Assembly (NCBI GenBank): GCA_976551045.1
Contig: CDPCPM010000239.1
Span: 9,424,001-9,488,000, forward strand
From: Glaucostegus cemiculus
Lineage: Eukaryota
Reading direction: 5' to 3'
DNA length: 64,000 nucleotides
Shown: piece by piece, positions 39,969 to 60,474 of the stretch
Layout: every line of letters starts with the position of its first letter
How positions within the stretch are numbered: the first letter of the stretch is position 1
Translations under genes and position numbers: made by a program
The notes under the pieces: generated by a model
Seen by the model: the letters and a program-made list of their open reading frames with translations, nothing else
Databases searched by the model: none
What the model was told of the DNA's origin: nothing

Positions 39969-40016
39969 TTAGTTCTTCTTCCAGCCGAGAGGGATATTTT
40001 CTGTTTTCTTCCGCAG
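39969..40016 (-). CDS. PDE9A-like: PDE9-like terminal coding segment [15 protein letters not shown]
   Basis: tttacaag| acceptor; resembles PDE9A LQKKTDSL; TAA followed 8 nt later by a gtaagt donor (39960). Confidence 0.75.
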   Translation of the reverse strand: MRKKTENIPLGWKKN

Positions 40017-58000: not shown

Positions 58001-60474
58001 CAGGTTAACAAGCAATGAAGGCAGCGACCTTGAAAAATCTGTAGGATTAATCAATATACCCAGTCAAGTAATAGAGTATAAGCTTCATGTGAACTCTTTG
58101 TCTCAATCATTGTCCAATCTATAATGGGCCCATGACTAGCTATTTAATTGACCCATATCTACATTGATTTACTGTGCGTGATTAATTTCCTCTGGAACCA
58201 ATGTAATCAGGTGGTGGGTGAAAATGTCCACTGATGTGAGGATGGCAACGATTAAGGTTTATAAACAGAGCTATTGAACTCCAATCCATGTGAGGGAAGG
58301 AAATCTATTACCCTTCTTGTGCTGCAGTAATGCAACGTTATGGAATACCTAAATAGCTTAAAGGATAAAGACTCAGACTTCCACAAAGATAATGGTTCAA
58401 CAAAGACCCAGCATTGGATGAAACAAAACGTTACAATCAAATAACCAAAAAAAGATTTAAAGATCTTTGTTTCTTCGCAATTTAAAGCATGTTTAATTTC
58501 TAACTTTTGCTAATCCTGATGAAGTCATTGCCTGAAACATTAATTTTTATCTCTATCTCCACAAGTGCTGCCTGACCCACTGAGTACTTCCAGTTCATTT
58601 CTCTTCAGTGTAATCGCTTTTGCAGATGGGTAGTTAGTGACTGACCCAGTTACATGTTGAACTCCTTAATATGAACAATGGTGTATTCTGCAGTAGGGAG
58701 AACCTCCTTTAACTCCAATACTTTCATTTGCCTCACGAGCCTGATAGAGTTCTTTGAGGAGGTGACGAGGAAGCTTGATGAGGGCAGGGCGGTGGATGTA
58801 GTGTATATGGATTTTAGTAAGGCGTTCGATAAGGTTCCTCATGGCAGGCTTCTTCAGAAGGTCAGAGGTCGAGGTATCCAGGGGAGGTTGGCTGTGTGGA
58901 TAAGAAATTGGCTTTCCTGTAGAAGGCAGAGGGTTATGGTGGAGGGAGTGCCCTCGGATTGGAGGGCTGTGACTAGTGGAGTCCCGCAGGGATCGGTTCT
59001 GGGGCCTCTACTCTTTGTTATATTCATAGATGATTTGGATGAAGGAGTGGAGGGATGGGTTGGTAAGTTTGCAGATGACACCAAGATCGGTGGTGTGGTA
59101 GATAGTGTGGAGGACTGTAGGAGCTTACAGGGGGATATTGATAGGATGCAGAACTGGGCTGACAGGTGGCAGATGGAGTTTAATCCGGAGAAGTGTGAGG
59201 TGGTGCACTTTGGGAGGACAAACTCCAGGACAGAGTATAAGGTAAATGGCAAGGTTCTTGGCAGTGTAGAGGAGCAGAGGGATCTGGGGGTTCATATCCA
59301 CAGTTCACTCAAAGTTGCCTCGCAGGTGGATAGGGCTGTTAAGAAGGCTTATGGGATGTTGGCTTTTATAAGTAAAGGGATTGAGTTCAAGAGCAGAGAG
59401 GTGATGATGCTGCTTTACAAAACTCTAGTTAGGCCGCATTTGGAATATTGTGTTCAGTTCTGGTCGCCGCATTATAGGAAGGATGTGGAGGCGTTGGAGA
59501 GGGTGCAGAGGTGATTTACCAGGATGATGCCTGGATTGGAGGGTATGGAATATAAAGAGAGGCTTAAGGTGCTAGGGCTCTACTCATTAGAGAGGAGGAG
59601 GATGAGAGGGGACTTGATAGAGGTGTTTAAGATATTGAGAGGAATAGATAGAGTTAATAGTCAGCGCCTCTTTCCCAGAGCGCAGATGCTAAAGGCGAGA
59701 GGGCATGCCTTTAAGATAATTGGTGGAAAGTATAGGGGAGATGTCAGAGGGAAGTTTTTCACCCAGAGAGTGGTTGGTGCATGGAATGCACTGCCTGGGG
59801 TGGTAGTGGAGGCAGATACGTTGGACAGGTTTAAGAGATTGTTAGATAAGCACATGGAAGAATGTGGAATAGTAGGATATGAGGGTGGAAAGAGTTAGTT
59901 TGGGAGATGTTTGTAGGATGGCACAGCTTGATGGGCTGAAGGGCCTGTTCTGTGCTGTATTGTTCTATTGTTCTATTGTTGTTCTATTGTTCTATTGTTC
60001 ATTTACCTAAACCCATGCAGTCCTGACAGCTAAACATTTGGAGTGGAATTTAACCCAAGCCATAGAAAAGATAAATGATTTTCCATTGGGTAAGCTTTCC
60101 ATTTTTTCCACCCTCCCCTTCTGGTCTTCCAATGCAGTGGAGGCTGTGTGCTGTTTGAGACTTGTGTATACGCTTCTTCCTGTCAGACCAGACAGACAGT
60201 GTAATGTCATGCTCTGCTTGCATTGTTCTATCAAAATGGAATAGCAATTAAAGCAGTGCCTATGGTGATATATTGACAGGGAGATTTTTGTCTGCCTTTA
60301 TGTATCTCTGGCTCTATGTCTGTTCCGACCTATAATGTCGTAAAATACCAATAGATATCAACTTTGCCTTAACAGCAGCAAACTTACCAGCCAACGTTTT
60401 AGTATGATAGGATTCATGTTGAACTCTTCTACCAGTCCCAGGTCATGGTACATGTACTCAAGACAGCTGAGCAT
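39969..60474 (-). CDS. PDE9A-like: PDE9-family high-affinity cGMP-specific 3',5'-cyclic phosphodiesterase, 5'-partial (catalytic domain and C-terminus, 9 coding exons in window)
   Basis: Nine GT-AG exons splice in frame to [15 protein letters not shown]...NPFHNFRH...[11 protein letters not shown]...LENHH...ILATDMARH...[11 protein letters not shown]...EEYF...TAQIGF...; PDE signature HDxDHxGxxN intact; protein collinear with human PDE9A. Confidence 0.95.
40474..40738 (-). mobile_element. Young CpG-rich V-domain SINE
   Basis: gtgggaggaaaccggagcacccggaggaaacccacgcagacacggg; head gggcggcatgatagcgtagcggttaccg on - strand. Confidence 0.88.
41639..42328 (-). mobile_element. 5'-truncated Penelope-like element (ORF C-terminus plus terminal repeat with hammerhead)
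   Basis: Minus-strand [26 protein letters not shown]; hammerhead-like 41737-41774; TSD aaaaagtcag at 41629-41638/42329-42338. Confidence 0.85.
42400..42495 (-). CDS. PDE9A-like: PDE9-like exon [32 protein letters not shown] (96 nt)
   Basis: gctgttag| acceptor, GAG|gtaaat donor; matches PDE9[33 protein letters not shown]. Confidence 0.93.
42840..43012. mobile_element. Penelope-type terminal repeat with partial inverted arm
   Basis: Minus strand CTGACGA-aaggtcttcgacct-GAAC; arms acagaaaaatgctagaaa / tttccagcactttctgt. Confidence 0.6.
43455..43942 (+). mobile_element. Rex1 3' fragment
   Basis: [12 protein letters not shown]...HPGHALF; aataaacctgattctgattctgatt tail. Confidence 0.85.
44474..44869 (+). 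mobile_element. Solo LTR (396 bp) in a PDE9-like intron
   Basis: TGTCAC...GTGACA inverted ends; perfect 5-bp TSD ATGAA (44469-44473/44870-44874); TATA-like gcataagta and polyA-like aatcaa. Confidence 0.9.
45397..45525 (-). CDS. PDE9A-like: PDE9-like exon [43 protein letters not shown] (129 nt)
   Basis: atgcag| acceptor, AAG|gtaagt donor; invariant substrate-binding Gln (TAQIGF). Confidence 0.95.
46785..46889 (-). CDS. PDE9A-like: PDE9-like exon [35 protein letters not shown] (105 nt)
   Basis: ttttcctcag| acceptor, CAG|gtgaaa donor; metal-binding Asp in CCDISN. Confidence 0.95.
47300..47413 (-). CDS. PDE9A-like: PDE9-like exon [38 protein letters not shown] (114 nt)
   Basis: ccctaaag| acceptor, AGT|gtaagt donor; ILATDM motif. 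Confidence 0.94.
47692..47913. mobile_element. Palindromic head-to-head Penelope-type unit
   Basis: About 90-bp inverted arms (ctgctggaggaac.../...gagttcctccagcag); TSD-like tctagaa at 47685-47691/47914-47920. Confidence 0.75.
48902..49058 (-). CDS. PDE9A-like: PDE9-like exon [52 protein letters not shown] (157 nt)
   Basis: gttcag| acceptor, CAG|gtaaga donor; inside ORF 48881..49093. Confidence 0.96.
49290..52380 (+). mobile_element. Long, very old CR1 remnant
   Basis: Degenerate FQKVFNK (~51370), ISKFAYD (~51570), [11 protein letters not shown] (51690) and cttattgaatggc tail. Confidence 0.6.
50763..51035. mobile_element. Palindromic head-to-head Penelope-type unit inserted in the old CR1
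   Basis: About 95-bp inverted arms, each ending in a hammerhead-like core, ~45-nt spacer; TSD taaaagagc at 50754-50762/51036-51044. Confidence 0.8.
52665..52747 (-). CDS. PDE9A-like: PDE9-like exon [27 protein letters not shown](A) (83 nt)
   Basis: gaacag| acceptor, GC|gtgagt donor (phase 2); carries the PDE signature. Confidence 0.95.
53510..53672. mobile_element. Degraded palindromic Penelope-type unit
   Basis: agcatctgtggaaag ... ctttccacagatgct inverted arms. Confidence 0.55.
54344..54448 (-). CDS. PDE9A-like: PDE9-like exon [35 protein letters not shown] (105 nt)
   Basis: ctatccag| acceptor, CAG|gtgagt donor; HNxxH catalytic/metal motif. Confidence 0.95.
54470..54755 (+). mobile_element. 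CR1 3' fragment abutting the acceptor of PDE9-like exon 54448
   Basis: gaggaagaatttcttccctcacagggttgtgag...gccatgatcttattgaatg...ggccgaatggc tail. Confidence 0.7.
56153..56507 (-). mobile_element. V-domain SINE with CR1-type tail
   Basis: cacagggagaatgtgcaaactccac core; head gggtggcaaagtggcacagctagtagagc. Confidence 0.8.
57170..57740 (-). mobile_element. Penelope-like remnant with GIY-YIG motif
   Basis: Minus strand [18 protein letters not shown] at ~57575-57630; terminal repeat at 57170-57290. Confidence 0.7.
58510..58600 (+). mobile_element. Penelope-type terminal repeat with intact CTGATGA/GAAA core
   Basis: cCTGATGAagtcattgcctGAAAcatt...tgctgcctgacccactgag. Confidence 0.55.
58730..59997 (+). 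mobile_element. Young CR1 LINE, 5'-truncated (RT plus 3'UTR), antisense in a PDE9-like intron
   Basis: ORFs 58678..59514 and 59524..59898 in the same frame, separated by one [28 protein letters not shown]; (TATTGTTC)n tail; TSD-like ttcattt at 58723/59998. Confidence 0.93.
60388..60474 (-). CDS. PDE9A-like: PDE9-like exon [29 protein letters not shown] (87 nt)
   Basis: ttggcag| acceptor, CTG|gtaagt donor; inside ORF 60358..60642. Confidence 0.93.

Follow-up and report, generated by a model that had tools for sequence, protein, structure and literature searches.

A probable second, ancient vertebrate PDE9 gene next to TMEM218 in the ray Glaucostegus cemiculus

The PDE9 gene at the locus and its predicted product

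The 64,000 nucleotides from the ray Glaucostegus cemiculus analysed here (hereafter the window; contig CDPCPM010000239.1 of assembly GCA_976551045.1, positions 9,424,001 to 9,488,000 of the forward strand) hold most of a gene of the PDE9 family of phosphodiesterases on the minus strand, and the gene TMEM218 on the plus strand. This PDE9 gene is very probably a second, ancient member of the family ("PDE9B"), located in a chromosomal block paralogous to the one that carries PDE9A.

Ten coding exons of the PDE9 gene were recognized (Table 1), whose phases join into a stop-free product of 332 residues that ends at a stop codon at 39969-39971. All ten exons follow AG acceptors, and the nine internal exons are all followed by GT donors. 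An initial annotation of the window had described nine in-frame exons between 60474 and 39969 with five catalytic motifs; these are real, and an extra exon upstream of them had been overlooked. The same annotation called the gene intact, which holds for the last ten exons, an unbroken run representing roughly the last two-thirds of the gene, and not for the whole, as approximately 185 N-terminal residues fall past the right end of the window. A tblastn search gave no convincing match to N-terminal exons inside the window (best E 0.19). In a six-frame translation, the motifs HNFRH (54412-54398), HDLDH (52696-52682), CCDISNE (46868-46848), EEYF (46802-46791), and TAQIGF (45456-45439) all lie on the minus strand within exons; across 50 shuffled versions of the window (mononucleotide shuffling), they occurred 1, 0, 0, 7, and 0 times in total, respectively.

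Table 1. Coding exons and the predicted polyadenylation signal in the window. Residue numbers follow human PDE9A2.
Feature	Position	Strand	Basis
PDE9 coding exon of 25 codons, where the catalytic region begins	62032..62106	-	AG/GT, in frame, similar to shark and ray proteins by tblastn
PDE9 coding exon	60388..60474	-	In-frame splice, AG/GT
PDE9 coding exon, HNFRH (H252/H256)	54344..54448	-	Motif, in-frame splice
PDE9 coding exon, HDLDH (H292/D293/H296)	52665..52747	-	Motif, in-frame splice
PDE9 coding exon, 52 residues	48902..49058	-	Best PDB match human PDE9A, E 2.7e-26; next family 2e-11
PDE9 coding exon, T363/M365	47300..47413	-	In-frame splice
PDE9 coding exon, CCDISNE (D402, E406), clade-B Thr410, EEYF (Y424)	46785..46889	-	Motifs, in-frame splice
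PDE9 coding exon, TKPTAQIGF (P450, Q453, F456)	45397..45525	-	Motif, in-frame splice
PDE9 coding exon	42400..42495	-	In-frame splice
Terminal PDE9 coding exon with stop	39969..40016	-	C-terminus same as in sawfish, stingray, skate, and devil-ray proteins
Predicted polyadenylation signal (first AATAAA after the PDE9 stop, at a distance of 283 bases)	39681..39686	-	Sequence
TMEM218 first coding exon	440..549	+	Pfam TMEM218_N, E 3.7e-13
TMEM218 second coding exon	1879..1984	+	In-frame splice
TMEM218 final coding exon with stop	12762..12896	+	In-frame splice

The closest relative compared is the RefSeq "PDE9A" of the sawfish Pristis pectinata (XP_051895651.1), identical at 330 of 332 residues, followed by the proteins of Hemitrygon (XP_072885818.1) and Mobula (326/332 each). 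Identity is 94–97% with shark and skate proteins, 273/322 with that of the chimaera Callorhinchus (XP_007894222.2), and 254/332 with squirrel-monkey PDE9A. The sawfish protein, 99% identical to the window PDE9, matches the Pfam family PDEase_I (PF00233) with an E of 1.1e-89 and, used as a proxy, finds human PDE9A as the closest solved structure (PDB 4QGE and related entries; E 1.7e-236, 76–78% identity). The sole two differences from the sawfish are at residues 162-163 of the spliced product (region 48926-48921), where Gly-Ile is found here and Asp-Val in the sawfish; in the remaining orthologues compared, from sharks and rays, these are Asp or Glu followed by Val or Ala. They may represent a species-specific change or an assembly error. 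Contigs from one sequencing run compared with the PDE9 stretch continue through the introns and differ at approximately 5–7% of the letters, as expected for the DNA of a relative; no splice joints were found among the contigs shown, the run being DNA-like and uninformative on expression.

Residues were numbered through a 533-residue primate PDE9A, whose numbering equals that of human PDE9A2. At the positions that we take to form the metal site and the pocket, the window protein is the same as primate PDE9A in 26 of 28, including each of the presumed metal ligands and catalytic histidine (H252, H256, H292, D293, H296, E322, and D402), and shares Glu406 with the human enzyme. The two differing positions are 410 and 450, with Thr for Met and Pro for Ala compared to human PDE9A. 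Class I phosphodiesterases employ two metal ions, hold the purine by stacking and by a hydrogen bond from a glutamine, and hydrolyse cyclic nucleotides. Judging from its residues, the window protein is predicted to be a class I cyclic nucleotide phosphodiesterase of the PDE9 family, which would bind two metal ions, clamp the guanine by stacking on Phe456, read it through a hydrogen bond from Gln453, and break down cyclic guanosine monophosphate (cGMP) to GMP. The roles of Gln453, Phe456, and the PDE9-type Tyr424, all present here as in human PDE9A, are described in the accessible part of PMC9791655.

Phylogenetic position and distribution

For a tree of 51 rows and 518 columns, computed by a careful method, one near-complete row per lineage was chosen from about 250 fetched proteins, and four models that were fused or long were trimmed to their PDE part. 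This tree separates a clade A (support 100/93), which holds all tetrapod rows of the set, from a clade B (100/97), which holds the window PDE9; both clades include sharks, the coelacanth, and ray-finned fish. A 39-row tree by the same careful method, which adds chimaera, amphibians, and lampreys (14 rows dropped and four added relative to an exploratory tree), recovered a vertebrate PDE9 clade (100/98) with clade A (98/94), clade B (99/99), and a clade C formed only by sharks (100/100). Clade A corresponds to the human-type PDE9A, with shark, coelacanth, and teleost proteins of its own, while clade B comprises the window gene together with those of chimaera, sharks, rays, coelacanth, ray-finned fish, frogs, and a caecilian. 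Because A and B each hold shark, coelacanth, and ray-finned members, the tree fixes their split before the divergence of sharks and bony fishes. The initial annotation had regarded the window gene as a second vertebrate PDE9 and pointed to a phylogeny as a check; the protein does group outside the PDE9A orthologue clade in both trees, and the approximately unbiased (AU) test in a 27-row subset rejects an orthology of its group to bony and tetrapod PDE9A (p 0.00125). A sorting by BLAST had put one lamprey row in B, which was an artefact of the reference set, the trees placing lampreys outside.

Fourteen alignment columns set B apart from A, and at all 11 of those covered by the window PDE9 it carries the B residue. 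The best of these marks are Tyr217 and Thr410, positions at which both outgroups agree with A. Moreover, A and B copies coexist within one species, on different sequences, in the epaulette shark (57 and 103 Mb), the coelacanth, and the conger; where sharks have the two copies, the sequence bearing B is the shorter one (57 versus 103 Mb, and 107 versus 212 Mb).

Two other features had been proposed as marks of the paralogue, and both are present but fail in that role. The first is TKPTAQ, in place of TKATAQ. Of the 155 proteins sorted to clade A, 72 have Ala at position 450, 67 have Pro, and seven have Val, with nine unread, Pro being carried by PDE9A of birds, reptiles, a marsupial, the axolotl, coelacanth, and teleosts, so that it is common to most non-eutherian PDE9A. 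Clade B has Pro in 151 of 206 proteins, Ala in one, and 54 unread. Since lamprey and acorn worm carry Pro (amphioxus has Ala), Pro450 is likely ancestral, as far as these residues tell. The orangutan PDE9A has Pro450, though eutherian rows mostly have Ala. The other feature is the short C-terminus, approximately 16 residues shorter than that of human PDE9A. The tail past YEELK has 28 residues in the window protein and 27–30 in clade-A proteins of shark, teleost, coelacanth, reptile, and bird; as tails of 41–47 residues are those of monotreme and eutherian rows, it is the long tail that is a mammalian addition.

The distribution of clade B was explored with the most B-diagnostic stretch of the coelacanth B protein as a query. 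Among the best 120 of 704 matches, the 22 amphibian rows (frogs and a caecilian) are 86–93% identical to it and all sort to B, whereas the 10 amniote rows are 58–85% identical and all sort to A. A grouping of amphibian B with tetrapod A is, in turn, rejected (p 0.00125; larger, 39-row set under a simpler model). The initial annotation described the gene as absent from the human locus; no amniote B was found among the matches listed, yet the absence is not specific to humans. Because B persists in amphibians and was found in no amniote, the loss is likely amniote-wide, and these sequence comparisons suggest that PDE9B was likely lost in the ancestor of reptiles, birds, and mammals.

Clade C is fast-evolving and is composed of proteins from catsharks, sevengill, basking, and white sharks, and smooth-hound. 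Its pocket position 452 is Met or Val instead of Ala in two of three proteins checked. The small-spotted catshark appears with clades A, B, and C, one of the species labels having been inferred from the accession series. Regarding the names, RefSeq calls the Xenopus tropicalis protein XP_012822440.1 and several ray proteins simply "PDE9A", although they belong to clade B. Among the matches listed, obtained with queries biased towards B, clade A had no member from frogs or rays. A tentative and rather doubtful extension would be that three PDE9 genes were present in jawed vertebrates from the start (A; B, lost in amniotes; and the fast-evolving C, kept only in sharks), that the frog and ray "PDE9A" are really B, and that those lineages may have lost PDE9A. 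If this were true, work on the Xenopus and on some zebrafish "pde9a" genes would deal with a gene absent from humans.

Genomic neighbourhood and origin

TMEM218, with a spliced product of 116 residues, converges on the PDE9 gene, as had been annotated, with their stops approximately 27 kb apart. No other genes were found in this gap by a Pfam search of its 27 long open reading frames, of which four match Pfam, all in families associated with long interspersed nuclear elements (LINEs). In human, the neighbour of PDE9A is WDR4 instead, and the SLC37A1-PDE9A-WDR4-NDUFV3-PKNOX1 block is therefore not matched on the downstream side of the window gene.

Further neighbours were drawn from five automatic gene models of other fish species, in which a B protein is fused to the product of a gene on the same strand. 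In the bichir and the Chinese sturgeon, a major facilitator superfamily transporter of the SLC37 type lies N-terminal to the B protein, which is the order SLC37A2-then-PDE9 that had been predicted; the bichir transporter has human SLC37A2 as its best PDB match (585 bits) and also matches Atlas clusters named SLC37A2. The models from Muraenolepis (a cod relative) and rohu join B to a HEPACAM-like protein, 73–74% identical to a named hepacam a, with the rohu model additionally carrying RIIa and IQ domains, which we take to be SPA17. In the sterlet, B is joined to OAF, a gene presumably on human 11q; the human strand orientations are likewise assumed, as is the paralogy of the wider regions of human chromosomes 21 and 11. 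SLC37A2, TMEM218, PKNOX2, HEPACAM, and SPA17 occur together in chicken (chr24:0-1 Mb, PMC6678660) and cattle (chr29, PMC12789686) according to the available gene lists, neither of which names a PDE9; the chicken list includes one unnamed LOC. On the other side, Slc37a1, Pde9a, Wdr4, Ndufv3, and Pknox1 share one interval according to the accessible part of PMC2778371. The position of the fish genes next to SLC37A2-like, HEPACAM, SPA17-like, and OAF therefore supports a block paralogous to that of PDE9A. Together with the trees, this bears out the annotation of a second PDE9 by genome duplication: the gene lies outside the PDE9A clade, B spans the jawed vertebrates, and the A/B split likely stems from the early vertebrate genome duplications, the second round being the most likely one at the origin of PDE9B.

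Several points weigh against this origin. In the 39-row tree, the node joining A and B to the exclusion of lamprey and clade C has a support of 81/85 only, and B with C (p 0.30) and A with C (p 0.28) are both kept by the AU test in the larger set, so that the tree does not fix whether the split belongs to the first or the second round. The synteny relies on fused automatic models of other species, and the SLC37A2 match was made without a contrast to SLC37A1; in this species, the view is that of the 64-kb window, in which SLC37A2, PKNOX2, and a PDE9A copy are not seen. The statement on amniotes covers the best 120 of 866, of 497, and of 704 matches, and clusters represented by up to 15 members each. 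These points leave some room for a small-scale or segmental duplication in the jawed-vertebrate stem, which would fit a tree that dates the split only before the divergence of sharks and bony fishes and places it weakly relative to lampreys, and also the fact that PDE9 was not shown in the curated ohnologue resources searched. We nevertheless regard it as improbable, as the B neighbours, TMEM218 included, belong to a block in which SLC37A2 and PKNOX2 correspond, as paralogues, to the SLC37A1 and PKNOX1 that flank PDE9A, and the shorter B-bearing sequences of the two-copy sharks speak against it as well.

Doubt may also be cast on the unity of clade B. The shark-ray gene and the bony-vertebrate "B" could be different ohnologues merged by the tree, given that the base of clade B is unresolved in the 39-row tree, that a third clade exists in sharks, and that joining shark-ray B with all of A was kept in the 27-row subset (p 0.06), another point against the preferred reading. 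In the larger set, the same grouping is rejected, if modestly (p 0.025), as is that of shark-ray B with C (p 0.032); with the support for B in both trees, the derived Tyr217 and Thr410 common to both groups, and the neighbours of both mapping to one amniote block, such hidden paralogy seems quite improbable. It is still harder to see the window gene as a ray PDE9A orthologue relocated beside TMEM218. The sawfish, little skate, and devil-ray proteins do bear the name PDE9A without "-like", and no ray clade-A protein came up, but the latter is no evidence when B queries are used, and sharks have a separate clade-A gene, apart from the rejected grouping with bony and tetrapod A. Least credible of all is a duplication private to cartilaginous fishes: the shark-ray B stem is long (0.2 changes per column), but a single clade of all cartilaginous-fish A and B is rejected (p 0.00114, 27-row subset), and coelacanth, ray-finned fish, and amphibians hold B too.

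The window also holds repeats. A 410-base element occurs at 33893-34302 and, in the opposite orientation, at 44474-44869, the two copies sharing 90% identity; they start with TGTCAC and end with TGACA, are flanked by 5-base duplications (exact at one copy, with one mismatch at the other), and look, in sequence, like solo long terminal repeats. Intronic LINE remnants with long open reverse-transcriptase frames (Pfam RVT_1) are found at 4727-6529 (minus strand, 601 residues) and 58675-59895 (plus strand, 279 residues), and the 3' end of the former is repeated, with 94% identity, at 38771-39355, just beyond the PDE9 stop. An Rfam scan of the window gave no match.

Previous records and implications

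The clade-B gene is already present in RefSeq and UniProt under PDE9A names, and, as the initial annotation had suspected for fishes, databases label it PDE9A or PDE9A-like in many fish, rays, sharks, and frogs. The RefSeq entries of rays, sharks, and the chimaera are orthologues of the window gene that differ only in name, the last exon being the same in Pristis and Hemitrygon, and the carp "Phosphodiesterase 9A like" sorts to clade B like the Xenopus tropicalis protein. In the accessible part of PMC12498267, zebrafish pde9aa, pde9ab, and pde9ac are all listed under human PDE9A without separating paralogues, and a "pde9al" figures in a cyprinid table of PMC8132401, as far as that source is available. 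The supplement of the skate genome has one "Pde9a-1" row, not assigned to A or B. A search that lay mostly outside subscription journals found no publication that names a PDE9B of vertebrates or describes its loss from amniotes, and online ohnologue databases or gene trees may record the pair; in the literature text available, "PDE9B" as a whole word appeared only for Schistosoma. PDE9 is likewise absent from the supplement of a 2026 database of jawed-vertebrate ohnologues, whose online tables may list the pair, and was not found in the text and supplement of PMC8040251.

The same pattern is known from other gene families. CHST16 is an ohnologue kept in fish and amphibians and lost in amniotes, according to the accessible part of PMC7353957, and the "cryptic" paralogues Bmp16 and Pdx2 are, in the portions of the sources available, likewise ancient and hidden by their absence from mammals. 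Since the pocket is unchanged, the retention of PDE9B for more than 400 million years would more likely be due to a divided expression than to new chemistry or an altered active site.

PDE9A is a drug target that is taken as the sole member of its family since mammals have one gene. In fish, sharks, and amphibians, a second, equally old gene goes under the same name, which affects orthology calls. As their pockets are nearly identical, PDE9A inhibitors would likely act on both paralogues in fish and frog models, where single knockouts may be masked by the other copy. PDE9B would be another ohnologue lost in amniotes, a familiar pattern, with no hint of new chemistry or of a novel type of system. 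More useful are the side results: that the loss likely extends to all amniotes, that the Xenopus tropicalis "PDE9A" belongs to clade B, and that sharks have a third clade.

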